This document shows, one piece after another, positions 1,241 through 49,148 of a stretch of DNA of 64,000 nucleotides; position 1 is the stretch's first letter, and every line of letters starts with the position of its first letter. The stretch is taken from sequence record DRR723986_562; one strand, given 5' to 3'. The translations under genes were made by a program, and so were the position numbers. The notes beneath the pieces are model-generated. The model had not been told where the DNA came from. It did not search any database and saw only the letters and a program-made list of their open reading frames with translations.

Positions 1241-1995
1241 ATCGAATAAATCATTTGTTTAAAACGAAATCAGAAAATGTTTGTAGTATCTTTCTTACCG
1301 CAGGATATCCGAAATTGAACGATACGGTTGAAACTGTACTGGAATTAGAAAAAAATGGCGTGGATATGGTCGAAATTGGGATGCCTTTTTCAGATCCTTT
1401 AGCAGATGGGGAGACCATCCAAGCCTCTTCATTGGTTGCTTTGGAAAACGGGATGACCATAGAATTATTATTCAGACAAATTTTGGCGATTAGGGAAAAA
1501 ACTCAAATACCAATCGTCTTGATGGGCTATTTCAATCCAGTTTTTAAATTTGGATTAGAACTGTTTTTAAGAAAGTGCCAGCTGTCGGGCGTTGACGGAC
1601 TAATCATTCCGGATATTTCGGTGGAAGAATATGAATTGAATTACAAACAAGTATTTGATGAATATGAAGTTCCGCTTACTTTCCTTGTTACGCCTAAGAC
1701 ATCTCAACAACGGCTTGAAAAGATAAAATCACATTCATCTACATTCATCTACTACGTGAGTTCTGCTTCAACTACGGGTAAAACAGGTGAGTTCTCTGAG
1801 AAGCAAAAAATTGATTTTAAAAGAATTCAGAACGAGAAAATTGAACTACCCATTTTGATGGGATTCGGGATTCATGATGCAACTACCTTCAAAACGGCCT
1901 GTGATTATTTTAATGGAGGAATAATTGGTTCAGCCTTTATTAGAAGTCAGTTACAAGCAGAATCGATCTCTAGTTTTATAAGCAAGATTAAATAA
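1237..1995 (+). CDS. trpA: Tryptophan synthase alpha chain
   Basis: [37 protein letters not shown] overlap with trpB. Confidence 0.97.
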
Positions 1996-2031
1996 AAATG
2001 AACCATTTACTCCATTTCTTGTTCTCATTGT

Positions 2032-2652
2032 ATGAGAACACTTTGTATCCTGCTGTTAACCATATCCTTCAACTTAAATGCGCAAAATCTCAATCAATTC
2101 AATGAAAAACGATTGAACATTGATAAAAAATTAATGTTGACATTAGGAGGCTGGTCTTTAACTAATGCAGTGGCTAGTGGAATTGGTTGGGGGACAACAA
2201 CAGGAGAGGCACAACAGTTTCATCAAATGAATACGATTTGGAGCGGATTCAATTTAGCTTTGGCAATTCCCGGATATATTAAAGCAAGAAAAACCGAGAC
2301 AGAAGGGATTCCACTGGGAAAAACGAATCACGAACAAAATAGAACAGAAAAAATATTCTTATTTAACGCAGGTTTAGATTTGGCTTATGTTACAGGCGGA
2401 TTTTATCTCAAGAGTTTAGCAAAGAATAACGTAGTTCAGGAGCAACGACTTAACGGCTATGGAAATTCTGTGATATTACAAGGAGGTTTTTTGTTTTTGT
2501 TTGATTTAACAGCTTACTTAATTCACGCAGCACATAGAAAGAATCAATTGCATCCAATCCTTAATAAAATTGAGTTGTCATCAACGGGTCTTGGAATCAA
2601 ATACCAATTAGGTCAGAGGCTTAACAATCAAGTAAATTATAAGGCATTCTAA
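2032..2652 (+). CDS. Exported/membrane hypothetical protein (DUF6992-like)
   Basis: Signal peptide, glycine-rich hydrophobic segments, FHQMN and NAGLDLAY motifs. Confidence 0.6.
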   Translation: MRTLCILLLTISFNLNAQNLNQFNEKRLNIDKKLMLTLGGWSLTNAVASGIGWGTTTGEAQQFHQMNTIWSGFNLALAIPGYIKARKTETEGIPLGKTNHEQNRTEKIFLFNAGLDLAYVTGGFYLKSLAKNNVVQEQRLNGYGNSVILQGGFLFLFDLTAYLIHAAHRKNQLHPILNKIELSSTGLGIKYQLGQRLNNQVNYKAF

Positions 2653-2659
2653 TTTTTTT

Positions 2660-2696
2660 TGAACCTTTTTGATGTTCGATTTTATTCAATCAAAAC
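2660..2696 (+). promoter_or_regulatory. Putative ECF sigma factor promoter TGAACC-N17-TATTCAATCAAAAC
   Basis: The same boxes, spacer length and 8-nt distance to ATG recur at 47364-47400 (minus strand). An AAC-containing -35 is typical of ECF promoters. Confidence 0.7.
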
Positions 2697-2704
2697 TGAA
2701 TATC

Positions 2705-4636
2705 ATGAAAGCAACAAAATCATTCAACTTACTATTTACTGTATTTATTTTTCTTTTTTCTACTAGCCTGAATGCTCAAATAAATGAGGGGTCAATCAAG
2801 GGCAATGTGTATGAAGTGAATAAGAAAAAACCAGTATTTAATGCGAGTATTCGAATTTCGGGAGTAGATTCCAAAATAGTTAAAAACACCTTATCGGATT
2901 CATTGGGTAATTATGAAGTAACAGGTCTGAAACCTGGGAAATACAGTGTCAAAGTTCAATCACCCAATCATCAAATTTTTAGGAGATCAAACATTGTGGT
3001 TGAGGCAGGAAAAGTTACTGTTCGTGATGTGAAAATGGAAACGCATCAAGAGGTGCCAGATATTGAGGAGGTTGATGATATTTCAATCATTGAAAATAAA
3101 GAAGAGTCCAAATCCGAACGCGATTATAAAGTCAAAAGAAATAAAAGTTATTCATACAATAATGCAAGCGCGCCAGCCAACTCTGGAGTTGGAGGAGGGT
3201 ATTATCATGAAGATCCAACAACTCACAATACGGAGTCGTATAACTCAATTACAGAAAATGGTTTTAAAGCTTCAGTTGCTGAGCCGTTATCAACTTTTTC
3301 AGTAGATGTTGATGCCGCATCCTATTCAAACACAAGAAGATTTATTTTAAATGGACAAAAACCAGAGAAAGGTGCTGTTCGGGTAGAAGAGATGATCAAT
3401 TATTTTAATTATGATTATCCAGACCCAGATAACAATCAACCTTTTTCGATTACAACAGAGGTGGGGGACTGCCCATGGTCTAAGAATAAGTTAGTGCATG
3501 TTGGTTTGCAAGGTAAACGCATTGATAAATCAGATTTACCTCCAAGCAATTTAGTTTTTCTGCTAGATGTTTCAGGTTCTATGAATAATGCGAATAAATT
3601 ACCGCTGTTAAAGAAATCATTTTCGCTTTTGGTGAATGAATTGACAGATCGAGATAAAGTAGCAATTGTTGTTTATGCTGGAGCAGCAGGGCTGGTTTTA
3701 AAGCCAACAAAAGGGTCAGATGGAACAACCATAATGGAGGCCTTGGAAAAATTATCAGCCGGTGGGTCAACTGCTGGTGGAAAAGGAATTGAATTAGCCT
3801 ACAAAACGTGCCAAGAAAATTTCATCAAAGGGGGTAACAACAGAGTGATATTGGCTACTGATGGAGATTTTAACGTTGGTATGAGTTCAGATGATGCTAT
3901 GGAACAACTAATTGTCAAGAAGCGTGAATCAGGAATATTTTTAACCTGTTTAGGTTTTGGAACAGGGAATTATAAAGATTCAAAAATGGAGACTTTAGCA
4001 GATAAAGGAAACGGGAATTACGCTTATATCGACAATCTGTTTGAGGCTAAGAAAGTACTTGTTACAGAAATGGGTGCAACGTTATTAACCATAGCCAAAG
4101 ACGTAAAAATTCAAGTTGAGTTCAATCCTGCGGTTATTGAGTCTTACCGTTTGGTAGGATATGAAAACAGGCTATTAAATAATGAAGATTTTAATGATGA
4201 TAAAAAGGATGCTGGTGAGATTGGAGCAGGACATTCTGTTACTGCCTTGTATGAAGTTGTGTTGAAAGGAGAAGGAGATGGGAAAACTGGAGTCGATCCT
4301 TTGAAATATCAAAATAGCGAGACGAACACAGCATTCAATGATGAAATGCTCACCGTTAAATTTAGATACAAAGCGCCAGATGGTGACAAGTCTAAATTGA
4401 TTGAAAGAACACTACCTAATAAGGTGGTTACCGCGGATAAATTGTCGGATAACTTCAATTTTTCGGCTGCAGTTGCGGAATTCGGAATGCTCTTAAGAGA
4501 TTCTGAATACAAAGGAACAGCAACTTTTGATCATTGTCTTAATTTGGCAGCTAAGGCCAAAGGGAAAGATAAAAATGGATATCGAGCAGAGTTTTTAAGA
4601 TTGGTTGATGCCGCTAAGGTTGTTTATAACAGCTAA
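2705..4636 (+). CDS. Secreted vWA-domain protein (YfbK-like) with N-terminal carboxypeptidase-regulatory-like domain
   Basis: Signal peptide from MKATK (start trimmed to ATG 2705). PLSTFSVDVDAASY, MIDAS DVSGSM, ILATDGDFNVG, YRLVGYENRLL, DAGEIGAGHSVTALYE. Confidence 0.9.
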   Translation: MKATKSFNLLFTVFIFLFSTSLNAQINEGSIKGNVYEVNKKKPVFNASIRISGVDSKIVKNTLSDSLGNYEVTGLKPGKYSVKVQSPNHQIFRRSNIVVEAGKVTVRDVKMETHQEVPDIEEVDDISIIENKEESKSERDYKVKRNKSYSYNNASAPANSGVGGGYYHEDPTTHNTESYNSITENGFKASVAEPLSTFSVDVDAASYSNTRRFILNGQKPEKGAVRVEEMINYFNYDYPDPDNNQPFSITTEVGDCPWSKNKLVHVGLQGKRIDKSDLPPSNLVFLLDVSGSMNNANKLPLLKKSFSLLVNELTDRDKVAIVVYAGAAGLVLKPTKGSDGTTIMEALEKLSAGGSTAGGKGIELAYKTCQENFIKGGNNRVILATDGDFNVGMSSDDAMEQLIVKKRESGIFLTCLGFGTGNYKDSKMETLADKGNGNYAYIDNLFEAKKVLVTEMGATLLTIAKDVKIQVEFNPAVIESYRLVGYENRLLNNEDFNDDKKDAGEIGAGHSVTALYEVVLKGEGDGKTGVDPLKYQNSETNTAFNDEMLTVKFRYKAPDGDKSKLIERTLPNKVVTADKLSDNFNFSAAVAEFGMLLRDSEYKGTATFDHCLNLAAKAKGKDKNGYRAEFLRLVDAAKVVYNS

Positions 4637-39279: not shown

Positions 39280-40761
39280 TTGGGTATTATTCAAAAACAA
39301 GCGTTAAGATCTTCACTAGTCAATTTTATTGGTGTTGGATTTGGTGCTATTACTAGATTGTCAATGCCCGTTATTTTAACCGAACGGCAAATTGGACTAA
39401 TTCAGTTGCTGGATTCGGTTTCCGGTTTTTTTGTCACCATTTTCAGCCTGGGCTACACACAGATTCTTTCCATGATTTTTCCCAAGTTTAGGGATGAGGA
39501 GTCAGGACATCACGGTTTTTTGATTTTTGGAATTCTTTTATCAATTCTGGGAGTAACAGTAAGTTGGTTAATTTTTTACTTTTTTGGGGATTATTATTTT
39601 AATTCGACAAATGGAAATGACTTTTTCAAAGCTTTTTCATTTCTCATTTTTCCTCTCATATTTTTTAGGATTATTTTCCGAAATCTTGATGGATATATTC
39701 GAATGCTATTCAATACGGTTTTCGGTGTTTTTCTAGAATCATTCATCAACAAGTTACTGCTCATGCTGAGTATAATAGCATTTGCCCTGTCATGGATAAA
39801 TTTCGAATTTCTAGCATATGCATTCAGTCTAATTTTATGTTTACCCGGGTTGTTTATTAGCGCATTTGCCCTGATTAAAACTAAAAAGATTACACTACCG
39901 AGTAAAGAATTGCTTGCCCCTTCTAACCGAAAATTGATGTTGCAGTATTCTATGTTTGGTGTTTTTACAGGATTGTCAGGGTCGGTAGTTTTGTATATCG
40001 ACAGTTTAATGGTGAACAAAATGATTTCAATTGAAGCGCTCGGAATATATTCAACGTTCTATTTTGCTGCTCGCTTGATTATCATTCCTGCATTGAGCAT
40101 CAATCGAATATCTGCAGTGATTCTCGCTGAGTCATGGAAGAATAAGGACATGGATAATATTCAGTCAATTTATGAGAAGAGCTGTTTGAATCAGTTAATT
40201 TTAGGAACCTTTCTTTTTGTGTTGGGATGGGCATGTATGGACCCTGTACTGAGTTTTTCACCCAAATTATTGAATTATGCAGATTATAAATTTGTCTTTT
40301 TCTTTTTGGGAATTGGTTTATTGGTAGAAATGATGACAGGTACGAACGCGGCAATTATCTCTACATCCAAAAAATACAAATATGAAACCTATTTTAATTT
40401 AATTTTGGCCGCACTAATTATTGTATTTAATTATTTTCTCATCAAGCAATTCCAGGTGGTTGGGGCTGCTGCTGCTTCTTTTCTGGCAATGATGCTCATC
40501 AACATCATTCGGTGGTGGTTTTTGAATAAGAATTACGGATTACAGCCTTTCAACGGACGTTTTTTAAAAGCGTTCCTAATAGCAGCTAGTTTTATTTGTT
40601 TAGTTTGTTTCGTTGACTATGAAGCTCAATCTTGGGTTAAATTATTGGTAAATGCTACTTTCATTACAATTGCTTTTTGGTCGGTTATTCTTGGCTTGAA
40701 TATATCTCCTGACATGAATAATTGGATTAAAAAGATTTATGCGAAATTTGTAAAGCGATAA
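39280..40761 (+). CDS. Polysaccharide flippase (Wzx/MOP family)
   Basis: TTG start, MGIIQKQ N-terminus, many TM helices, located in the glycan cluster. Confidence 0.88.
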   Translation: MGIIQKQALRSSLVNFIGVGFGAITRLSMPVILTERQIGLIQLLDSVSGFFVTIFSLGYTQILSMIFPKFRDEESGHHGFLIFGILLSILGVTVSWLIFYFFGDYYFNSTNGNDFFKAFSFLIFPLIFFRIIFRNLDGYIRMLFNTVFGVFLESFINKLLLMLSIIAFALSWINFEFLAYAFSLILCLPGLFISAFALIKTKKITLPSKELLAPSNRKLMLQYSMFGVFTGLSGSVVLYIDSLMVNKMISIEALGIYSTFYFAARLIIIPALSINRISAVILAESWKNKDMDNIQSIYEKSCLNQLILGTFLFVLGWACMDPVLSFSPKLLNYADYKFVFFFLGIGLLVEMMTGTNAAIISTSKKYKYETYFNLILAALIIVFNYFLIKQFQVVGAAAASFLAMMLINIIRWWFLNKNYGLQPFNGRFLKAFLIAASFICLVCFVDYEAQSWVKLLVNATFITIAFWSVILGLNISPDMNNWIKKIYAKFVKR

Positions 40762-40767
40762 AAGAAA

Positions 40768-41751
40768 ATGAAATTCGAGGAAACAATTCGTGAGAATATA
40801 GCTAAGCAACACTTTTTAATAACAGGTGGTGCAGGATTCATAGGATCCAACTTGGTGGGTGAGTTATTAACTTTAGGTGCAGAGAAAGTTACCGTTTTAG
40901 ACGATTTGAGCACCGGGTATGCAGAGAACATTAGTGAGTTTCAAACGCATCCACAATTCAATTTTATTGAAGCTTCTATTACAGATTTGCACAGTTGCAT
41001 AAGTGCTTTTAAGGGAGTAGATGTGGTTTTTCAAATGGCTGCCTTAGGAAGTGTGCCTAGAAGCATAGATAATCCTCTTGCTTCTAACGCTGTAAATGTT
41101 ACCGGATTCTTAAACGTATTAGAGGCCGCAAAGATATCTAAAGTAAAAAAGGTGGTGTATTCGTCTTCTTCTTCAGTGTATGGAGATGATGAACACCTGC
41201 CAAAGATAGAACAATATACAGGTAATCCTCTTTCTCCTTACGCAGTTACTAAGAAAGCTAATGAATTGTATGCCAGAACCTTTGCTGATTTATATGACAT
41301 GTCGATAACAGGTTTGCGGTATTTTAATGTATTCGGCCCAAAACAAAGAATGACCGGGGCTTATGCTGCGGTAATTCCCATTTTCATCAATAATTTATTG
41401 AATAACGAGCCATGTACAATAAATGGTGTTGGAGATATCTCTCGCGACTTTACATACGTTAAAAACGTTGTGGAGGCCAATATTCTGGCTGCTTTCAATA
41501 CGAATGAAAAGCATGAGATTTATAATATTGCAATGGGGGGGCAATTGTCATTGAATGACTTGTATGAAATATTAGAATCTAATATTAGGTCTGGCTTGAA
41601 GCCAATTCATGCTGCGCCAAGAACAGGAGATATTCTTTCTAGTATGGCAAATATTGATAAGGCGAAAAAAGACCTAAATTACAGCCCTACAATTGGATTA
41701 GTTCAAGGATTACAAAAAACGATTGAATGGAATCGAGCTCAATCTAAATAA
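40768..41751 (+). CDS. UDP-GlcNAc 4-epimerase-like SDR (WbpP/TviC)
   Basis: ITGGAGFIGSN, AALGSVPRSI, SPYAVTK, LRYFNVFG, AYAAVIP. Confidence 0.9.
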   Translation: MKFEETIRENIAKQHFLITGGAGFIGSNLVGELLTLGAEKVTVLDDLSTGYAENISEFQTHPQFNFIEASITDLHSCISAFKGVDVVFQMAALGSVPRSIDNPLASNAVNVTGFLNVLEAAKISKVKKVVYSSSSSVYGDDEHLPKIEQYTGNPLSPYAVTKKANELYARTFADLYDMSITGLRYFNVFGPKQRMTGAYAAVIPIFINNLLNNEPCTINGVGDISRDFTYVKNVVEANILAAFNTNEKHEIYNIAMGGQLSLNDLYEILESNIRSGLKPIHAAPRTGDILSSMANIDKAKKDLNYSPTIGLVQGLQKTIEWNRAQSK

Positions 41752-41756
41752 ATAAC

Positions 41757-42863
41757 CTAACACTTCGTTTGAGAAGCCGTTCCAGCAGATTGCTGTTGTC
41801 TACTCTTTAAATACTTCGCTCTTCTTTTATCATATTGTTTGCGAGTAATTCCTGCTTTATCTAGCTCATCTTGTGTAGGATATTCTGGCCATTTTTCAGC
41901 ATCTTCAGCTTCTTGCTTTGTTTGAAAAGGTTTCTTTTCAGGGGCTGCTGTTTCATCTCCAAATTCATCATAAAAATGCTCTTCAACTAAGATTCCTTTT
42001 TTGTAAACGGCATCATATTTTTTAATATTCTTTTCGTTGTTGTAATACTCTTCGAATATTCCATGCCTTAAATCACCTTTGTAATTCTCCACCGTCCATT
42101 TACGTTGGTCTTTTGGGTAAAATCTTCTTGTTTCACCTTCTCGGCAACCATTTTCATGACTTTCTTCATAAAACAACTCACCATTGTCATAGTAATAACG
42201 CGAAAGGCCTTCTTTTTTACCCATTTTAAATTCTTGTTCTGATTCAACCATGCCTGATTCAAAATAAGTGATGTACTTTCCATTCCATTCACCATTGGTG
42301 TACATGATTTCTTTTTTCAGGGTGTTATTTGGATAATACTCTTGTTTTCTTCCACTCATTTGACCGTTGCTCCAGGTCTCAATTTTCCAAATTGAAGTGT
42401 CGGGAAAATAGTAGCGTGATTCACCATCCTCAGCGCCCATTACGTAATTCTTTTCCCACTTCAAACTGCCATCTTCTCTGTACAATTTCCACTGTCCGTC
42501 TTCTTTTCCTAATCCTTGATCATCATGACTTCTAACTAAGTTTGGTTTACCATTGTCATGCCAAATAGTGTCCTTCCCAACAGGGCGACCTCCTTGAAAA
42601 TTTAAGTACATTTCAAGATTTCCATTGATATGACAAACTTTACATTGTCCTGTAAAAGGCTTACCTGATTTCTTATGCATTACTGCTTGATTGTCCTCAT
42701 CAAAGTAAACCATATTGGCGCAGTCAGAAACCATTCTAAATCTTGCATCTCTGCATTTTAAAGGTTCTTCTTTTGGTTGTTGATTCTGGTCAATTTGATC
42801 AGGTAGTTGTCCGTAGCTTGAAAGGGATAAAAGACAGATGCTAAATAAGCTTGTAAATTTCAT
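41757..42863 (-). CDS. Exported MORN-variant repeat protein (YwqK-like)
   Basis: Signal peptide; repeated YxxGxxxG...YYxNG units; KPFTG motif. Confidence 0.85.
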   Translation of the reverse strand: MKFTSLFSICLLSLSSYGQLPDQIDQNQQPKEEPLKCRDARFRMVSDCANMVYFDEDNQAVMHKKSGKPFTGQCKVCHINGNLEMYLNFQGGRPVGKDTIWHDNGKPNLVRSHDDQGLGKEDGQWKLYREDGSLKWEKNYVMGAEDGESRYYFPDTSIWKIETWSNGQMSGRKQEYYPNNTLKKEIMYTNGEWNGKYITYFESGMVESEQEFKMGKKEGLSRYYYDNGELFYEESHENGCREGETRRFYPKDQRKWTVENYKGDLRHGIFEEYYNNEKNIKKYDAVYKKGILVEEHFYDEFGDETAAPEKKPFQTKQEAEDAEKWPEYPTQDELDKAGITRKQYDKRRAKYLKSRQQQSAGTASQTKC

Positions 42864-42906
42864 AAAAATGGTTTGGTCTATTAAAGTAATAAATCTACAC
42901 CAATTT

Positions 42907-43317
42907 TTATGCCTGCTTTACTGTGATCAGATGTTTTTTTAACACATCCAACATGAAATCGGGTATTGAACTGACCTCATTTATAGTATAGTCAAAGCAT
43001 ACAATGACTGATTCTCCTTCTGCTTTTAATACATTCTCTTGATTGAAGATAGAATAGCAAAGTGTAAAACTTGAACGGCCAATTTGATTGCAGGCAACTT
43101 CAACTCTCAATTGATCCTCAAGTCTGCCAGGTATGTGATACACAACCGTATTCTTTTTTAAAATAATGCCGTGTTTTTTCCAGTCCCAATCTGTTCCTAG
43201 TTCTGTCACGAAAAAATTCATCCTTCCAGATTCAAAGTAATGTAAATAAACAGCATTGTGGATGTGTCCTGCGATATCACAATCAGCGAATCTTACTTGT
43301 AGGGGAGTGCTAATCAT
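42907..43317 (-). CDS. Acyl-CoA thioesterase (4HBT/YbgC family)
   Basis: VRFADCDIAGHIHNAVYLHYFESGR, IGRSSF. Confidence 0.9.
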   Translation of the reverse strand: MISTPLQVRFADCDIAGHIHNAVYLHYFESGRMNFFVTELGTDWDWKKHGIILKKNTVVYHIPGRLEDQLRVEVACNQIGRSSFTLCYSIFNQENVLKAEGESVIVCFDYTINEVSSIPDFMLDVLKKHLITVKQA

Positions 43318-45188
43318 TTATCTAGCTTTTCAAATTCTGAATTGTTGCTCAAGAATTCTGGAACAATATATTTCATTAGACCAACTATTTTCTCGTTGTT
43401 CTGTCCATTAAACATGCTTGTTAATTCTTCAATATTTGAAGAGATTTCGTCAAAATCATATTCCCTCACTTTTGCAATAAGAATTTGAGGATGATGCGTT
43501 GGCATGGTGTTTTCTTCGTTAGTCAGCAGTTCTTCATACAGCTTTTCACCAGGACGCAAGCCTGTAATTTTTATTTCAATATCTCGGCCCAATACCAATC
43601 CACTCAGTTTGACCATCTTTTTAGCCAAATCATAAATACGAACCGACTCGCCCATATCAAATACAAATATTTCATTGCCTTCGCCCATGGTTTCAGCTTC
43701 AAGTACCAATGCGCAAGCTTCTGGAATGGTCATGAAAAATCGTGTAATGCGTTTATCGGTTACGGTCAACGGTCCTCCATTTTCAATTTGTTTTTTGAAT
43801 AATGGAATCACTGACCCGTTTGATCCTAGAACATTACCGAAACGAGTTGTAATAAATTTTGTATCCGAAATTTGATTGGCGCACTGAGCATAAATTTCCG
43901 CAATACGCTTAGAGCATCCCATTACATTGGTAGGATTAACAGCCTTATCCGTTGAAATGAGCACGAATTTATGCACCTTGAATTTCATAGCCAAGTCTAC
44001 CAAGTTTTTAGTGCCCTTGACGTTTGTTTGAATAGCTTCTGAAGGATTATCCTCCATTAACGGAACGTGTTTATAAGCAGCTGCATGAAATACGATTTCT
44101 GGTTGAAATGATTTGAACACATTCTCTAATCGATCGGCATTTCTAATATCCGCAATTACGGATTCAGTTAAATGGAGTAATCTTTTTTCTTTGAGCTCCA
44201 TCTCTAAATTATACAAGGGCGATTCGGCCTGATCTAGAATAATTACTTTCTCAGGATTGAACTCGACCAACTGACGTACAATTTCACTTCCTATTGAGCC
44301 TGCGGCACCGGTTACCAGGATTCTTTTGTTATCAAATTCCTCAGCCAGTTTATCATTGTCTAGTCTAATTGATTCTCGACCCAATAAATCTTCAATTTTT
44401 ATGGGTTTGATTTGGCCCGGAGTAAATTCACCGTTAATCCACTCTTTTGGTGAAGGAACGTTCAGTATCTCAACATCATGAGCCAAACAGGTTTCTATTA
44501 TGGCTCGTTTATTTTTTTTATCTGGATTCTTAATCGCCAAAATCAATCGCTTAATTTCTTTAGATTCAATGATCTCTTCTAAAGAGCTACTATGATATAT
44601 TTTTAATCCCTCAAGTGACTTACCCAATTTTGCCTGATTGTCATCAATAAAACAAATTATTCTGCCATTTAAGCTGGTTTCTTTTTCAACCGTATGTTTT
44701 GTAATGAGACCATAGGTGCCTGCTCCATAAATTACAGTCGGAATCATGTCTTTGTCACGTTTCAAACCCTCCATGTACAATAATTTTACTGCAAATCGTA
44801 AAACCAATAAGAATGAAATACAAACAAAATATTCTACTATGAAAATTGAAATCGGAAAAAGAAAATGGCCGTCTACAAATTTAAATTTGATAACTGAAAT
44901 AATGACCATTAGAAAAGTACCTGCGCTTACCCCAAATATGACATTTTTTACATCAGCAGATGCTGTGTGACGTAGCATTCCACTATACACTTTGAAAAAG
45001 AAGAAGGAAATTCCTCTGCACAAAATATAAATCGGAAGTCCGGTAATAAATATCTCGTACTCATGCTCGAATGGCAGATTTGAAGAGTCGAATCGCACCA
45101 AATAGGCCACAATTAAAGAAGCCACAGCAATGAGTATGTCAACGCTAAAAATTAGCCAACGGGGTACATTTCGTTTTGGTAAACGCAT
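43314..45188 (-). CDS. Membrane-bound nucleoside-diphosphate sugar 4,6-dehydratase (CapD/WbpM/PglF family)
   Basis: Four N-terminal TM; IEDLLGR, VTGAAGSIGSE, HAAAYKHVP, STDKAVNPTNVMG, RFGNVLGS, GLRPGEKLYEEL. Confidence 0.93.
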   Translation of the reverse strand: MRLPKRNVPRWLIFSVDILIAVASLIVAYLVRFDSSNLPFEHEYEIFITGLPIYILCRGISFFFFKVYSGMLRHTASADVKNVIFGVSAGTFLMVIISVIKFKFVDGHFLFPISIFIVEYFVCISFLLVLRFAVKLLYMEGLKRDKDMIPTVIYGAGTYGLITKHTVEKETSLNGRIICFIDDNQAKLGKSLEGLKIYHSSSLEEIIESKEIKRLILAIKNPDKKNKRAIIETCLAHDVEILNVPSPKEWINGEFTPGQIKPIKIEDLLGRESIRLDNDKLAEEFDNKRILVTGAAGSIGSEIVRQLVEFNPEKVIILDQAESPLYNLEMELKEKRLLHLTESVIADIRNADRLENVFKSFQPEIVFHAAAYKHVPLMEDNPSEAIQTNVKGTKNLVDLAMKFKVHKFVLISTDKAVNPTNVMGCSKRIAEIYAQCANQISDTKFITTRFGNVLGSNGSVIPLFKKQIENGGPLTVTDKRITRFFMTIPEACALVLEAETMGEGNEIFVFDMGESVRIYDLAKKMVKLSGLVLGRDIEIKITGLRPGEKLYEELLTNEENTMPTHHPQILIAKVREYDFDEISSNIEELTSMFNGQNNEKIVGLMKYIVPEFLSNNSEFEKLDK

Positions 45189-45246: not shown

Positions 45247-46329
45247 CTATTTTACTTTTTCAATTTTAAAAGAATCCTTTTGTTTATCAGAGTTAATAAT
45301 TAACAGATAAGATCCTGATTCATAAGGTTTAAGATTAATGTTAAATTCTCTTAATCCTTCAGATAAATTTCCAGAATAAATCGATTTAATTTTTTTACCG
45401 TCAACAGCATATAAATAAATGTCATACATTCCTGAATGATTGACCTGTAATTGGAATTTAGCGTAATCAGAAGTGGGATTTGGGAATAGAACTCCTTCAA
45501 AATCTGGATTCACTGCTATTGTTGCTAAAGATTCAGTATTTGTTTCAGTTTGCTTAACTGCATCAGTTGTGTCTTCTAGAAAGTTGAAATATTCTGGATC
45601 TATCATCAATCCACCATCTACCATTTCATCTGTGAATAGAGTGGTGTCGGGAATTTTAGGTTCAACATAATGAACGGCGGTTCTTCCCATGACAATTTCT
45701 TCTTTCTTTTCAAGAGTATCGGTTTCAATTGGTTCAACATGATGGATGATAGGTTGACCTAAAAAGAGTTCTTCTTTTTCGTCAGGAATAAACATGATAT
45801 CACCTTTGGTGAATTCGCGCTCATCTAAATTGGTTTCTGTTTCACATGTTTTTGTTATTTCATCTTCAGATGATACCTTAATTTTTCCTTTTTTATAATT
45901 GTTGTGTTCCTCAACTGGGGCTTCTTCTTCTATGTGCGATTTATTGGGTAGCTCCGGCTCCTTGATTTGTTCTATCGCTTCCTCATAATATAATTCTCCC
46001 ACAACATGTTGATTAGATTCACAACCCGTAAATAAGGTCATTCCGAAAACGATTAAACAAGCATATAAGAATTTTGATTGTAAAGATCGTGCAGATTGAT
46101 TTTGCCAAGCAAAAAAGTCATCATTTAACTGAACCAATTGTGTTTTTTTGAATCTACCGCACATATGCTTACCAGCATTTTCGTGCAAAATTGATTTTAT
46201 CTCGTTTGGAGATTTATTACTGAAATCAATAACATCTATTTGACAGGATCCGCAAAAAGCACCTTTTTCAGTCGGTGTAAAGTCGGCCCAATTTTCATGA
46301 CAAGGTTCTGGAATACTAATCTTACTCAT
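45247..46329 (-). CDS. Cys4-domain / internal lipobox / T9SS type-A CTD protein, paralog 1
   Basis: ISIPEPCHENW...FCGSC...CGRF; hydrophobic stretch ending LFTGC (C103); CTD LFPNPT...GSYLL...FKIEKVK. Confidence 0.8.
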   Translation of the reverse strand: MSKISIPEPCHENWADFTPTEKGAFCGSCQIDVIDFSNKSPNEIKSILHENAGKHMCGRFKKTQLVQLNDDFFAWQNQSARSLQSKFLYACLIVFGMTLFTGCESNQHVVGELYYEEAIEQIKEPELPNKSHIEEEAPVEEHNNYKKGKIKVSSEDEITKTCETETNLDEREFTKGDIMFIPDEKEELFLGQPIIHHVEPIETDTLEKKEEIVMGRTAVHYVEPKIPDTTLFTDEMVDGGLMIDPEYFNFLEDTTDAVKQTETNTESLATIAVNPDFEGVLFPNPTSDYAKFQLQVNHSGMYDIYLYAVDGKKIKSIYSGNLSEGLREFNINLKPYESGSYLLIINSDKQKDSFKIEKVK

Positions 46330-46387
46330 AGCTTAAATTTTGGTACATCTATGGTGCGGTACATTCTTAGGTTAATTTGGTTCAAAT

Positions 46388-46414
46388 AAAAAGAGGGACC
46401 TCCCCAGGTCCCTC
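46388..46414 (-). terminator. Rho-independent terminator between the paralogs
   Basis: Minus strand GAGGGACCT-GGGG-AGGTCCCTC followed by TTTTT. Confidence 0.85.
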
Positions 46415-46443
46415 CATCCATGAAAAAACTACTTACGTAGCGC

Positions 46444-47355
46444 TTAGTTTACTTTTGAAATTTTTAAAGTCTCATTTTGGCCTTGAGAAATGATTTTTAC
46501 AATATATAAACCTGAATTTTTATCTGAAAGGTCACATTCGAATTGATTTCTCCCTTCAGGTAAAATACCTGAATGAATGGTTTGTACCAATTGACCATTC
46601 ATGTTATAGAGTACAATGTCAAATTGTCCTTCTTGTTCTATTTCTAGTGCAACTGTTGTTAAGCCTTGTGTCGGGTTTGGATAAGCAGTTGCTTCGAAAA
46701 TTCTTGAATCAATATGAATAGGATCTGCAAGTATGCTTGTCGTGTCTTCAGGTACAACCTCTTCAACATATTTAATATAATTTTCAGTGTAACCTATACC
46801 CCCTGCGACTTGTATTTCTCCTCTTGTTTCGTAAATCTGCTGAACATCATACTCTTCGTAAATCACACCTCCTAGTTCATAGTCCTTAATTTCACAAACA
46901 AATTCGGCAATCCCCGGTTCAACGATTTGCTCTTGAATGTAATCTAACAAATCAACTTGACTAATTTCAAGTTCGGTGTTGATGAATTTAGCCTTTGTAG
47001 GATTATCCTCAACCACTTCAATTTGATTGAGATCTTGGATGGCCTTTTCATTTTCACATGAGAATAGGCTTAATCCAAAGACCATGATACAAGCCAGGAT
47101 GAATTTACTCTGAAAAACTCTCGGTTGTTGATTTTTCCATTCTAAAAATCCCGCATTCAGTTCAATCAATTGTGATTTGTTGAAACGTCCACAAATGTGT
47201 TGATTTGCATTCTCTTTCACAATTTGATTGATCTGTTGATTGGATAAAGATCTAAAATCAAAAGTGTCAATGCTGCATTTATCACAAAATGCTCCTCTTT
47301 CAGTAGGAGTCATTTGGCTAAAATCTTCTTTACATGGGTCTGGAATGCTAATCAT
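46444..47355 (-). CDS. Cys4-domain / internal lipobox / T9SS type-A CTD protein, paralog 2
   Basis: ISIPDPCKEDF...FCDKC...CGRF; hydrophobic stretch ending LFSC; CTD AYPNPT...GLYIVKI...LKISKVN. Confidence 0.8.
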   Translation of the reverse strand: MISIPDPCKEDFSQMTPTERGAFCDKCSIDTFDFRSLSNQQINQIVKENANQHICGRFNKSQLIELNAGFLEWKNQQPRVFQSKFILACIMVFGLSLFSCENEKAIQDLNQIEVVEDNPTKAKFINTELEISQVDLLDYIQEQIVEPGIAEFVCEIKDYELGGVIYEEYDVQQIYETRGEIQVAGGIGYTENYIKYVEEVVPEDTTSILADPIHIDSRIFEATAYPNPTQGLTTVALEIEQEGQFDIVLYNMNGQLVQTIHSGILPEGRNQFECDLSDKNSGLYIVKIISQGQNETLKISKVN

Positions 47356-47363
47356 AATTCATT

Positions 47364-47400
47364 GTTTTGATTGAATACAAGCGTCATTGCATTAGGTTCA
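47364..47400 (-). promoter_or_regulatory. Putative ECF sigma promoter TGAACC-N17-TATTCAATCAAAAC
   Basis: Exact box, spacer and ATG-distance match to 2660-2696. Confidence 0.7.
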
Positions 47401-47589: not shown

Positions 47590-48171
47590 ATGAAAATATT
47601 CCTCTTTATTCTAGGAATCTCTGTGCTTTTTGTTTCGTGCCGTAAAAAAGAGTTGAGAGATGTTGAAACGACTGAAACCGCTGGAGCACAGCATTGTTCT
47701 AATTTTGTTAAAGATGCAGACGAGCTTGGAGTTGATTGCGGTGGAGCGGATTGTGATCCTTGTCAACAAGACACCCTGCCATGCAACATACCTGATAACA
47801 AGGTTAGATGTTTGGAGGCAAGTACAGTTACTACAGAATCATTAATTAACCAATCGCATGGGTATTTAGGAAATAACTACGTTTTTAGGGCATATACTGG
47901 TGACGGTGACTCATTAATTCTCACTTTTGACGACATTCCGGACGTAACACAAACTTATTCAGGGGTTGCGAACTCTTTTGATATTTCTTCAACTGAAGTC
48001 TTGGTTGAATATTTTCAACCTTATCCATTGAAAGATTGGATTGGAAGTGGAGCAGTCTATGTAAATTTTATTGACGGAGCTTATAAAATAGGTTCTTGTG
48101 ATTATGATTTTCATGAGTACGGTCAGCCTTCTTTTTCTATCGAACAATATTTTAGCATAACATTCTATTAG
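47590..48171 (+). CDS. Lipoprotein with a Cys-rich CxNxxxDxxExGVDCGGxxCxPC motif
   Basis: Lipobox FVSC followed by RKKE; CSNFVKDADELGVDCGGADCDPC. Confidence 0.75.
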   Translation: MKIFLFILGISVLFVSCRKKELRDVETTETAGAQHCSNFVKDADELGVDCGGADCDPCQQDTLPCNIPDNKVRCLEASTVTTESLINQSHGYLGNNYVFRAYTGDGDSLILTFDDIPDVTQTYSGVANSFDISSTEVLVEYFQPYPLKDWIGSGAVYVNFIDGAYKIGSCDYDFHEYGQPSFSIEQYFSITFY

Positions 48172-48182
48172 CCCAAATCAAC

Positions 48183-49148
48183 ATGAAAAAAATTATTATT
48201 ATCTGCGGAATTCTTTCTTTTACATCCGCTTTTTGTCAAGATGATGAAGTTGTTGAGTATTCTTTAATATATGATGAACCGGACAAGTCATGGGTTGGAG
48301 GAGGGATATCATATGATATGTCTTTAAACGAATATAATATGACAATTGCCGCTCTTGGGGTTGAAGGAAGGTTTTTTCATGAATTGTTTGCCATAGATGC
48401 TGGGTTTAAATTTCATCTGTTGGAAAACGCAGCTGATTTTGCCTATTTAAGTCCTTATGCAACTTCAATTTATGAGCCAGAAAAATCTAGAGATTTTAAT
48501 TTACTAGGAACGTATTACTTTAAACAGGATACCGAGAAAAAGAAAGCGACCGTTCGATTGAAAAAAGTTGGAAATACAATATATGTTGTAGAGGTACCCG
48601 CTAAAAGATCAGTTAAGTTCGGGGCCGAATTAGGATATGATGCTGGAGTGACTTATTACAATTTTCAAAATAATCAAATGACAGGGATTGATTCTCAGGG
48701 GAATGAGGTGTTGATTGAATCTGGTAATGGCTTGGGCAAATCAGTTGCGACATTTTATAAATACTCCATGATTCGGTTGGGAGCTAGTCGTACTCGCTCT
48801 ATGAACATGCAAATAACTACAGCTAAATACGGTGATAGAACTGTAGCCAGTTCGAGTCGTATCTATACTCAGATTTTTATCGGATTTGGCCAGTCTGTTG
48901 ATGATATTTATGTTCCTTTTGATGCTTTCATTAATCTTCAGGAAGAGCCTTATACGAGATATGATATTAATACCAATTTACCATTTAGAAAAATTGGCGG
49001 ATGTATTGGTTATCAAAATTACAGTTTAGGAAATTTTGGATTCGGTTATGGAGCTGAAATAGGAATGCTTCCGGCGCCCAAAAATAAACTGAGAACAAGT
49101 TTTTATCTCGATTTAACGCTTCGCTACCAAATTGGTAAAAAATTGTAA
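48183..49148 (+). CDS. Putative outer-membrane beta-barrel protein
   Basis: Signal peptide, amphipathic strands, C-terminal FYLDLTLRYQI. Confidence 0.6.
   Translation: MKKIIIICGILSFTSAFCQDDEVVEYSLIYDEPDKSWVGGGISYDMSLNEYNMTIAALGVEGRFFHELFAIDAGFKFHLLENAADFAYLSPYATSIYEPEKSRDFNLLGTYYFKQDTEKKKATVRLKKVGNTIYVVEVPAKRSVKFGAELGYDAGVTYYNFQNNQMTGIDSQGNEVLIESGNGLGKSVATFYKYSMIRLGASRTRSMNMQITTAKYGDRTVASSSRIYTQIFIGFGQSVDDIYVPFDAFINLQEEPYTRYDINTNLPFRKIGGCIGYQNYSLGNFGFGYGAEIGMLPAPKNKLRTSFYLDLTLRYQIGKKL

Follow-up and report, generated by a model that had tools for sequence, protein, structure and literature searches.

Two tandem genes in the window (the whole stretch of DNA analysed here, 64,000 nt) encode paralogous proteins that consist, in order, of an N-terminal Cys4 domain, a hydrophobic segment ending in a lipobox, an acidic linker and a C-terminal sorting domain (CTD) of T9SS type A. 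We read the precursor as a Cys4 domain that folds in the cytoplasm, probably binds metal and stands directly before a cleavable Sec signal peptide, with the membrane stub that cleavage would leave behind as its main product, and we give this reading about an even chance of being right. Conservation in the family centres on the N-domain together with the hydrophobic segment, whereas what is exported can be exchanged; for this reason we consider the stub, and not the exported polypeptide, the main functional product.

Organization of the tandem genes

Both genes lie on the minus strand. One open reading frame (46444..47355, including the stop codon) encodes a protein of 303 aa, and the other (45247..46329, including the stop codon) encodes a 360-aa paralog that is 31% identical to the first over the full length (BLASTP, E 2e-53). 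Of 73 full-length relatives of the 303-aa protein, all but three (70) contain PF18962. A terminator-like hairpin on the minus strand separates the paralogs (46392..46415; a 10-bp stem with 6 G-C pairs, then a T-run) and lies 29 nt past the stop codon of the 303-aa gene. A scan for sigma-70-type promoters remained at chance level, with 11 found and 10.0 expected.

The genome nearest to the window, G001, served as the reference for substitution counts and for checks of export machinery. Relative to G001, the two N-domains together show 5 synonymous and 0 nonsynonymous differences (4/0 in the 303-aa protein and 1/0 in the 360-aa protein). Ahead of the hydrophobic segment there is no in-frame ATG, GTG or TTG, either from codon 63 to codon 91 of the 303-aa gene or from codon 65 to codon 97 of the 360-aa gene. 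A translation start just ahead of the hydrophobic helix, which the earlier note had named among the observations that would undo its proposal, is contradicted by the lack of a nearby alternative start codon and by the absence of nonsynonymous change; on sequence grounds, the N-domain is genuinely coding. Contigs from an RNA library span the N-domain coding regions of both genes, though their support for transcription is weak, because contigs cannot show transcript ends and DNA may occur in such libraries.

Close relatives carry a third tandem paralog, of 219 aa and without a CTD, which is absent in the window. By blastn against the G001 loci, the junction falls at 47360..47392 (no strand assigned), where G001 has 700 nt in place of the window's 33 nt. 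Contigs of runs X1 and X3 part from the window at 47359 and 47393, and one X5 contig does so at 47359.

The N-terminal Cys4 domain

The domain comprises residues 1-78 of the 303-aa protein (47122..47355, minus strand) and, by alignment with that paralog, residues 1-80 of the 360-aa protein (46090..46329, minus strand). The four aligned cysteines stand exactly where the earlier note had placed them, at C8, C24, C27 and C55 in the shorter protein and at C10, C26, C29 and C57 in the longer one. Those of the 303-aa protein are invariant in an alignment of 24 relatives. Among 79 phylum-wide members of the family, the first three cysteines and one Asp are invariant, and the fourth cysteine and the Gly after it are at least 90% conserved. 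AlphaFold2 (AF2) models the 303-aa N-domain with a pLDDT of 90.6 as a mixed alpha/beta fold, with strands at residues 22-24, 29-33 and 55-57 and helices at 39-48 and 60-74. The Cys4 domain probably binds a metal. Positive residues before the hydrophobic segment and acidic residues after it predict that the domain lies on the cytoplasmic side, as had been proposed.

The domain is unannotated, and it is real, translated and conserved. It had zero matches at E≤1 in Pfam and none in NCBIfam, a Foldseek search of the PDB gave 0 matches at E≤0.001 (best E 3.1), and phmmer against PDB sequences gave one chance match only (E 1.5). A search of the ESM Atlas returned Bacteroidota clusters only, at 0.89. 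The literature searched yielded no description of the domain, and in the accessible text of the ECF classification paper there is nothing on it.

An N-domain-first layout is common in Bacteroidota. At E≤1e-3 the domain occurs in 5,661 cluster representatives, and when 401 genomes of the phylum were sampled, 45 encoded it. Tandem copies are frequent, and arrays of up to four copies without sigma genes occur. Its match starts within the first 25 residues in all 150 representatives among the matches listed; conservation figures from these 150 are biased upward because the set was chosen by N-domain similarity.

The hydrophobic segment and its putative cleavage site

The earlier note had also described a hydrophobic helix ending in a lipobox near residue 100, and both proteins have one. 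Residues 79-100 of the 303-aa protein (47056..47121, minus strand) consist of a positive n-region (R78, K84), about 15 hydrophobic residues and the lipobox LFSC (Cys100), and AF2 places a helix at 78-99. Sequence and alignment assign residues 81-103 of the 360-aa protein (46021..46089, minus strand) to a hydrophobic segment with the terminal lipobox LFTGC (Cys103), a variant also found in relatives, e.g. P0070 and P0086. This is the only hydrophobic segment in the window proteins, beginning near residue 85, after the conserved folded domain. F93, G94, L97 and F98 of the 303-aa segment are invariant in the 24-relative alignment, and the lipobox cysteine itself (C100), whose lack of conservation the earlier note had named as a refutation, is kept in at least 90% of these sequences.

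The position of the lipobox cysteine, residue 100 or 103 in the window proteins, is typical of the family, with a median of 102 among 224 relatives. A lipobox some 100 residues from the N-terminus is non-canonical, which counts against our preferred explanation. So does the very high conservation of the segment; signal peptides are not usually conserved to this degree, and a permanent anchor that binds a specific partner would suit it too.

A hydrophobic segment and a cleavage-type motif follow the N-domain in 76 of the 79 phylum-wide members. Heuristic regular expressions classed the sites of the 79 as lipobox (30), small residue followed by Gln (36), A-x-A without Gln (10) and short or no motif (3); the same heuristic applied to 278 database relatives gave 224 lipobox sites, 47 small-residue-Gln sites and 7 others. 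Of the 46 non-lipobox members, 30 match the strict pattern [AVSTGCIL]-x-[AGS]-Q; in 1000 shuffles, 11 did so on average and never more than 19. A Gln at position +1 is given as a Bacteroidetes hallmark of signal peptidase I substrates in the accessible text of PMC5837995.

Signal-peptidase-I-type and lipobox-type sites interchange within the family. On the N-domain tree the site type must have changed at least 8 times, and well-supported branches by themselves force at least 2 changes, and in one supported clade two tandem paralogs of a single locus have different site types. From this switching we take it that cleavability, and not the type of site, is what is kept. The uncharged hydrophobic run has a median length of 15-17 residues and follows a positively charged n-region, with a mean net charge of about +1.9; it is short, like a signal peptide. 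That the segment behaves like a cleavable signal peptide is supported by the homologues, which have either a lipobox or a signal-peptidase-I-type A-x-A↓Q at the same position. The segment is therefore most likely a cleavable signal peptide, and its removal would leave the Cys4 domain on a cytoplasmic membrane stub.

Linkers, sorting domains and exported parts

Residues 101-224 of the 303-aa protein (46684..47055, minus strand) form an acidic linker that AF2 models as mostly disordered (pLDDT 37-56 over 101-180), with a small confident strand-helix element at 182-200 (pLDDT 87-93 over 181-200). Residue composition marks a long acidic linker at residues 104-280 of the 360-aa protein (45490..46020, minus strand), with Pfam matches at chance level only. 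The acidity noted earlier is evident from the counts, with 29 D+E against 7 K+R in 124 residues of the 303-aa protein and 45 against 15 in 181 residues of the 360-aa protein.

Both proteins end in the T9SS type A CTD that had been claimed for them, at residues 225-303 (46447..46683, minus strand) and 281-360 (45250..45489, minus strand), respectively. Scores exceed the curated cut-offs for Pfam Por_Secre_tail PF18962 (47.6 bits for the 303-aa and 32.9 bits for the 360-aa protein; cut-off 27) and for TIGR04183 (49 and 32.6 bits; cut-off 23), and AF2 builds the 303-aa CTD as seven strands with a pLDDT of 95-98. A lipid anchor and a T9SS CTD on one mature protein look redundant or conflicting, a point that we count against our preferred explanation.

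Mean pairwise identity in the 24 relatives, a set retrieved with the full-length protein, is 52% for the N-domain, 69% for the hydrophobic segment, 21% for the linker and 41% for the CTD. The N-domain and the hydrophobic segment are the best-conserved parts, with the segment highest. The exported part varies widely across the 79 phylum-wide members, with CarbopepD_reg_2 in 38, TonB_C in 10, Por_Secre_tail in 6, OmpA in 1 and no Pfam domain in the rest; in 6 of the 79 the predicted mature part is 27-56 residues long. The pairing of this N-terminal module with a T9SS CTD stands for both window proteins, but the module is not T9SS-specific, given its occurrence with TonB_C, CarboxypepD_reg, OmpA and short tails. 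A word-based search, which is weak evidence, found no fused forms longer than 531 aa.

Gene neighbourhoods

An anti-sigma-like signal had been suggested as one example of what the N-domain could do. No ECF sigma gene lies beside the window genes. Among ten neighbours scanned singly there was one such gene, divergently oriented and adjoining the family gene L024. A sigma family is absent from the 25 of 90 families listed for 87 neighbour ORFs of 29 phylum-wide loci, the other 65 being rarer, and no sigma-like neighbour cluster recurs in a set of 79 named loci. The domain itself lacks the HxxxCxxC motif of the ZAS family, with Arg or Lys at the position four before C24 where that motif has His, and Pfam gave no zf-HC2 match to it at E≤1. 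With no conserved sigma neighbour and no ZAS motif, we therefore regard the anti-sigma idea as unsupported; the alpha/beta fold also departs from the analogy.

Recurrent neighbours of other kinds did not converge on a partner or pathway, either in the 29 phylum-wide loci or in the 79 named loci. In the former, the recurrent genes are those for a deaminase (7 ORFs) and for DXP synthase (5 ORFs), which is housekeeping synteny within one locus group. In the latter, the top two clusters, judged by their opening residues, are an ATP-binding protein and a helicase-like protein, and the most frequent cluster is found in 19 of 79 loci only. Ten of the 79 have as a neighbour the CapD-like gene found after the pair in the window. 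The link to the adjacent polysaccharide genes is therefore local.

A proposed mechanism and alternative explanations

In the mechanism we favour, the N-domain would fold in the cytoplasm, and the short hydrophobic segment would insert N-in/C-out as the remaining chain is translocated. Lgt and signal peptidase II would modify and cut the precursor at Cys100 or Cys103, giving two products. One would be a membrane-tethered Cys4 stub of roughly 100 residues, and the other a lipidated, acidic and largely disordered polypeptide that ends in a type A CTD and is handed to the T9SS. The stub would work by contacting other proteins on the cytoplasmic face of the membrane, its production being tied one-to-one to export, and may be released or cleared by a site-2 protease. 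The topology, the cleavage, the metal binding and any activity of the stub are inferences. G001 encodes signal peptidase II (Peptidase_A8, 113.9 bits), GldL and the PorU sortase as T9SS machinery (both above cut-off) and a site-2 protease. In enterococci, according to the accessible part of PMC10202637, signal peptidase II and a site-2 protease turn lipoprotein signal peptides into active peptides. By extension, the signal-peptidase cut may serve as a built-in 'site-1' cut, with the stub, or the domain freed by site-2 proteolysis, reporting on or regulating envelope export from inside; we offer this further step as a speculation that is unlikely to be right.

Some of the same observations could describe TonB-like bitopic inner-membrane proteins with an uncleaved signal-anchor, in which a Cys4 head and a partner-docking helix would be joined by a periplasm-spanning linker to a CTD contacting the T9SS. 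No part of the protein is better conserved than the segment (mean pairwise identity 69%, four invariant residues), TonB_C ends 10 of the 79 relatives, several of them with proline-rich linkers, and the window linkers are long and disordered, as spanning the periplasm needs. An uncleaved anchor, however, would have no reason to carry a lipobox or A-x-A↓Q at its outer end, nor to switch between them, its hydrophobic core would be only about 15 residues long, and members with extracytoplasmic tails of 27-56 residues would be unable to span the periplasm, so that we hold this arrangement to be rather unlikely. Cleavage is common ground with another alternative, in which the N-domain would be a cis-acting export aid only, an extended signal peptide whose task is to target translocation, hold it back or check it, and which is degraded after the cut. 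The N-domain does always sit directly upstream of the signal peptide, and long signal peptides with extra N-terminal regions are described elsewhere, e.g. in the accessible text on the NtraC model (PMC2447879). Yet here the supposed cargo is poorly conserved, often domain-less and as short as 27-56 residues, with the helper under the most constraint, and the exported domains (CarboxypepD_reg, TonB_C, CTD) are small, ordinary and normally need no such help. We consider it a doubtful account, less probable than a permanent anchor.

If the family consisted of zinc-binding membrane anti-sigma factors, an ECF sigma factor would stay bound to the Cys4 domain until regulated proteolysis freed it. The overall layout (a Cys-rich domain in the cytoplasm, a single membrane segment, and a part outside the cytoplasm) would suit such a role, as would the divergent ECF sigma gene beside L024, the single case among ten neighbours scanned singly. 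Against it stand the missing HxxxCxxC, with Arg or Lys four before C24, the empty Pfam result at E≤1, a predicted mixed alpha/beta fold that has no PDB neighbour, tandem arrays of up to four copies without sigma genes, and the neighbourhoods, in which no sigma gene lies beside the window genes, no cluster exceeds 19 of 79 loci, and no sigma family is among the 25 of 90 listed (87 ORFs, 29 loci); we judge it highly improbable. A mis-called gene start, with translation beginning near the hydrophobic segment and the upstream 'domain' lying outside the protein, has only the rarity of such an architecture in its favour. The stretches free of start codons (codons 63-91 and 65-97), the 0 nonsynonymous versus 5 synonymous N-domain changes relative to G001, residues invariant across thousands of relatives and the N-domain's place in the first 25 residues of the 150 representatives listed make it scarcely credible.

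Implications

Bacterial signal peptides are treated as disposable address labels. In these proteins the strongest constraint falls on the folded domain and the signal peptide and the exported part varies, which suggests that in this phylum-wide family the 'label' itself is the product. If true, the export-coupled stub would define a new domain family, and it would offer a way, open to testing, in which Bacteroidota link cytoplasmic events to Sec, lipoprotein or T9SS export. Should the 'site-1' reading hold as well, thousands of Bacteroidota proteins would be the first bacterial functional signal peptides that carry a domain, and their T9SS, lipoprotein, TonB_C and CarboxypepD_reg parts would be interchangeable export-dependent triggers. 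Annotation pipelines currently name such proteins by the C-terminus only ('T9SS type A sorting domain-containing protein', 'carboxypeptidase-like regulatory domain-containing protein'), and they are likely to be assigned wrongly by signal-peptide predictors and in secretome surveys.

Comparison with known systems

The window proteins resemble T9SS type A cargo in their CTD, and G001 encodes GldL and the PorU sortase. In ordinary T9SS cargo a short signal peptide at the N-terminus precedes a functional passenger domain. Here the signal is internal, of the lipoprotein type and placed after a folded domain, and the passenger consists of disordered acidic sequence. With bacterial lipoprotein precursors they share the positive n-region, the short hydrophobic core and a lipobox (L-F-S-C or F-T-G-C). 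In those precursors the cysteine is usually within roughly the first 15-35 residues, at about 20, unlike the cysteine of the window proteins at around residue 100. Surface lipoproteins of Bacteroidetes have a negatively charged export signal, as reported in the accessible text of PMC5080379, and the acidic residues right behind the window cysteines bear a loose resemblance to it. The residues in question (ENEKA and ESNQH) do not come close to the published consensus.

Like ZAS/zf-HC2 anti-sigma factors, the window proteins have a Cys-rich N-terminal domain, predicted to be cytoplasmic, followed by one membrane segment, but they are without the HxxxCxxC motif, the helical fold and an adjacent sigma gene. 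The TonB family is approached by those relatives that join the same N-terminal module to proline-rich linkers and TonB_C; the window proteins themselves have no TonB_C match in Pfam, and the TonB anchor is uncleaved and has no lipobox. Autotransporters are described as having an extended signal peptide region ahead of the hydrophobic core. The NtraC model, in the accessible text of PMC2447879, concerns long vertebrate signal peptides of at least 40 residues, whose extra N-terminal sequence is proposed to do more than targeting. Extra sequence before the hydrophobic core is common to both systems and to the window proteins, but in the former it amounts to a few tens of residues and is not known to form Cys4 folded domains; the literature searched held no description of a domain-like signal-peptide extension in Bacteroidota. 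PorA of Porphyromonas gingivalis is a small CTD-bearing protein with a regulatory and not an enzymatic role in T9SS signalling (PMC7712824, accessible text); in that text it is set apart from the window proteins by a FimH-like N-terminal domain.

The enterococcal sex-pheromone precursors show how a signal peptide can yield a bioactive product, which is the putative case here: signal peptidase II cleaves their signal peptides, and the site-2 protease Eep/RseP makes a second cut (PMC10202637 and PMC4173765, as far as their accessible texts go), and G001 likewise encodes a site-2 protease. The pheromones, however, come from signals of normal length and are extracellular peptides of 7-8 residues, whereas what is predicted to remain of the window proteins is a domain of about 78 residues, folded and in the cytoplasm.

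Anatomy of the gene pair

The two ORFs of the pair lie on the minus strand, at 46444–47355 (303 aa) and 45247–46329 (360 aa), and encode paralogs with 31% identity over their full length (BLASTP, E 2e-53), similarity being by far the highest in the first ~100 residues. The layout described in the earlier note is present in both: four aligned cysteines (C8/C24/C27/C55 in the 303-aa protein, C10/C26/C29/C57 in the 360-aa protein), a QSKF motif and, after it, a short hydrophobic stretch that ends in the lipobox LFSC or LFTGC, respectively, an acidic stretch (D+E 29 versus K+R 7, and 45 versus 15), and a CTD, with both C-termini matching Por_Secre_tail and TIGR04183 over curated cut-offs. The N-terminal 100 residues gave no Pfam or NCBIfam match at E≤1 beyond chance-level ones. 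The two genes may be transcribed separately, since a terminator-like hairpin (10-bp stem, then a T-run) stands between them.

In an AlphaFold2 model of the 303-aa protein, built with 150 relatives, the N-domain is confidently predicted (pLDDT 89–95) and is followed by a helix at residues 78–99, disorder over ~101–180 and a seven-stranded CTD (pLDDT 95–98). Modelled alone, residues 1–78 reach a pLDDT of 90.6 with three short strands and two helices. The CxxC pair is located on a hairpin, and the four cysteines of the predicted domain may bind a metal. Foldseek comparison of the N-domain with the PDB gave no match at E≤0.001 (best E 3.1), and a PDB sequence search returned one chance match only. 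Within the otherwise disordered linker, residues 181–200 (window 46756–46815) form a predicted strand–helix element, GGIGY..Y..YVEE, at a pLDDT of ~90. This element recurs at the extreme C-terminus of CTD-less relatives (e.g. '...GGMVMDPEFIDYLEEE') and looks, by eye, like the start of the TonB_C domain of relatives.

Family breadth and distribution

A phmmer search with residues 1–105 against 1.84 billion cluster representatives matched 5,661 proteins at E≤1e-3; tightening the threshold to 1e-10 leaves 687, and to 1e-30 leaves 25. The match begins in the first 25 residues in every one of the 150 representatives listed; Por_Secre_tail is found in 99 of these 150 and TonB_C in 2. In an even phylum sample, 45 of 401 genomes have a family match, 18 of the 45 more than one, with tandem arrays of up to four copies and nine matches in one genome. 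What the earlier note had observed in two proteins is confirmed, and broadened to a phylum-wide family. GldL is present in 42 of the 45 family-bearing genomes versus 63 of the 356 without the family, a comparison confounded by kinship.

Tandem arrays are frequent among the fetched loci, with up to four copies in a row, as at L058 (G156:C28), where two adjacent copies have different predicted signal-peptidase types, L020 (G152:C4) and L035/L011 (G340:C1) of the phylum sample. Two public records that are gammaproteobacterial by name, L102 (titled Glaciecola amylolytica) and L075 (titled Arenicella sp.), combine family genes with a GldL over the cut-off, and for that reason are probably wrongly named Bacteroidota genomes or bins.

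A translated and constrained N-domain

The N-domain is real and translated. A CTD is carried by 70 of 73 full-length relatives, the named ones being mostly Crocinitomicaceae metagenome-assembled genomes, and in an alignment of 24 relatives C8, C24, C27, C55, G21, D33, F34, W73 and others are invariant, with the lipobox Cys kept in at least 90%. An N-domain HMM run over the phylum-sample loci L003 and L005–L072 yielded 79 family ORFs (L001, L002 and L004 were excluded as repeats of the window's own orthologs). All 79 retain three Cys and one Asp, and the fourth Cys, the next Gly and one Gln are each at least 90% conserved. Between the window and G001, its nearest genome, the N-domains of both paralogs show five synonymous and no nonsynonymous differences, small numbers whose direction is that of a constrained coding region. 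No in-frame start codon occurs from codon 63 (303 aa) or 65 (360 aa) up to the hydrophobic segment, inside which the next one lies; the first refuting condition of the earlier note, a start just ahead of the hydrophobic helix, therefore does not hold. RNA-library contigs span both N-domain coding regions and weakly support their transcription, as contig ends and strand are not given and DNA is possible in the library.

Among the 24 relatives found with the full-length protein, mean pairwise identity is highest in the hydrophobic segment (69%), followed by the N-domain (52%), the CTD (41%) and the linker (21%); identity figures from the 150 representatives are biased, that set having been picked by N-domain similarity. 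The exported part of the 79 members is CarbopepD_reg_2 in 38, TonB_C in 10, Por_Secre_tail in 6, OmpA in 1 and without a Pfam domain in the remainder, and in six members the predicted mature part is just 27–56 residues. Members of 170 and 219 aa with acidic tails and no CTD are also present in G001. Selection is thus strongest on the N-domain and signal segment rather than on the presumed cargo.

Predicted cleavage sites after the hydrophobic segment

By a heuristic classification of the 79 members, a lipobox follows the hydrophobic segment in 30, a small residue then Gln in 36, and an A-x-A-type site without Gln in 10, while three short ORFs have no hydrophobic segment. Of the 46 members lacking a lipobox, 30 match the strict motif [AVSTGCIL]-x-[AGS]-Q; when the same stretches were shuffled 1000 times, the mean number of matches was 11 and the highest 19. 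Gln at +1 is described as a hallmark of Bacteroidetes signal peptidase I substrates (PMC5837995). The same heuristic applied to 278 database relatives gave 224 lipobox, 47 small-residue-Gln and 7 other sites. An N-domain tree, poorly resolved and built on a short alignment, implies at least eight switches between the two site types; its well-supported branches alone require at least two, and label shuffles a mean of ~25. One well-supported clade includes two tandem paralogs of a single locus that differ in site type. The median length of the hydrophobic run is 15–17 uncharged residues, with a positively charged n-region ahead. A peptidase site at the outer end would serve no purpose in a permanent anchor, and still less would a swap of its type; comparison across the family therefore points to a cleavable signal peptide, with the N-domain as a cytoplasmic extension before it.

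Gene neighbourhood and variants of the locus

The pair is followed downstream by a CapD-like polysaccharide gene and a thioesterase. Two divergent plus-strand ORFs, 47590–48171 and 48183–49148, lie upstream; they have no Pfam family at E≤0.001 and signal-like N-termini, that of the former ending in VSC. ORF 47590–48171 is also Cys-rich (CGGADCDPC). The stretch next to the pair, ~39280–45188, holds a polysaccharide-biosynthesis cluster in which a flippase-like Polysacc_synt gene, an NAD-dependent epimerase and a CapD-like Polysacc_synt_2 protein are joined by a 4HBT thioesterase and a MORN-repeat protein. Across 29 phylum-wide loci (87 neighbouring ORFs), a deaminase (7 ORFs) and DXP synthase (5 ORFs) recurred, with no others doing so among the first 25 of 90 families, and a divergent ECF sigma factor was one of ten singly scanned neighbours. 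In the 7-kb flanks of 79 named loci, the most frequent neighbour cluster is shared by 19 loci and the CapD-like gene is found in 10. No partner or pathway is legible from either set of neighbourhoods.

In G001 a third tandem paralog lies directly upstream of the 303-aa gene; its 219 aa comprise an N-domain, an LFSC lipobox and an acidic tail, with no CTD and no Pfam match. Where G001 has 700 nt including this paralog (L004 1469–2168), the window has 33 nt (47360–47392). Contigs of sequencing runs X1 and X3 leave the window sequence at both edges of this junction, and one X5 contig does so at 47359. The form with three genes therefore seems to be common, with the window representing a deletion variant or else a collapse in the assembly at 47360–47392. 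The CTD of the 303-aa gene (46447–46683) shows a synonymous divergence from G001 (L002) of 0.46, against ~0.10 for the rest of the gene and 0.00 for the 360-aa CTD, which suggests a recombination or gene-conversion patch. A fourth member of G001 (L003 1306–1818, minus strand; 170 aa) lacks a CTD and directly follows the gene (1922–3304, minus strand) for a PKD-repeat protein whose terminal domain is a CHU_C type IX secretion signal.

Proposed mechanism and alternatives

We give the following mechanism, taken as a whole, about an even chance. The precursor would insert N-in/C-out, its Cys4 domain remaining cytoplasmic, and Lgt and signal peptidase II (the latter encoded in G001) would act at Cys100 or Cys103. 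One product would be a ~100-residue membrane-tethered Cys4 stub, and the other a lipidated acidic polypeptide with the CTD, open to the T9SS, of which GldL and PorU are encoded in G001. As the conserved part, the stub would be the main product, made in fixed ratio to export and acting via protein contacts; its net charge, computed as about −2, does not suggest DNA binding. Release of the N-domain by site-2 cleavage is conceivable, since G001 encodes a site-2 protease and in enterococci signal peptidase II and a site-2 protease are reported to turn lipoprotein signal peptides into active peptides (PMC10202637).

The leading alternative, an uncleaved TonB-like tether, would account for the conservation of the membrane segment and for relatives with TonB_C. 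It leaves the peptidase sites, their interchange and the very short tails unexplained, and we consider it unlikely. Somewhat less probable again is that the N-domain purely aids export, a role that matches its position but is at odds with where constraint falls. Of the earlier note's interpretation, the topology and the logic of cleavage hold up, whereas the anti-sigma analogy does not: a zinc-binding anti-sigma factor fails on motif, predicted fold and neighbourhood, and is in our view very improbable. Least credible is a mis-called gene start, contradicted by the absence of nonsynonymous N-domain changes relative to G001, the residues conserved in the 79 members and the lack of a nearby start codon.

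Comparison with known systems

Full-text searches (main texts, mostly open-access) found no description of the Cys4 N-domain. The known concepts that come closest include lipoprotein signal peptides that yield pheromones and the extended signal peptide regions of autotransporters. Others are the long bipartite signal peptides described in vertebrates (PMC2447879) and PorA, a small CTD protein reported to have a signalling role (PMC7712824). The C-terminal type A CTD and the lipobox of the window proteins are both ordinary; what is unusual is a folded, conserved and unannotated domain placed, phylum-wide, before a signal peptide that we infer to be cleavable.
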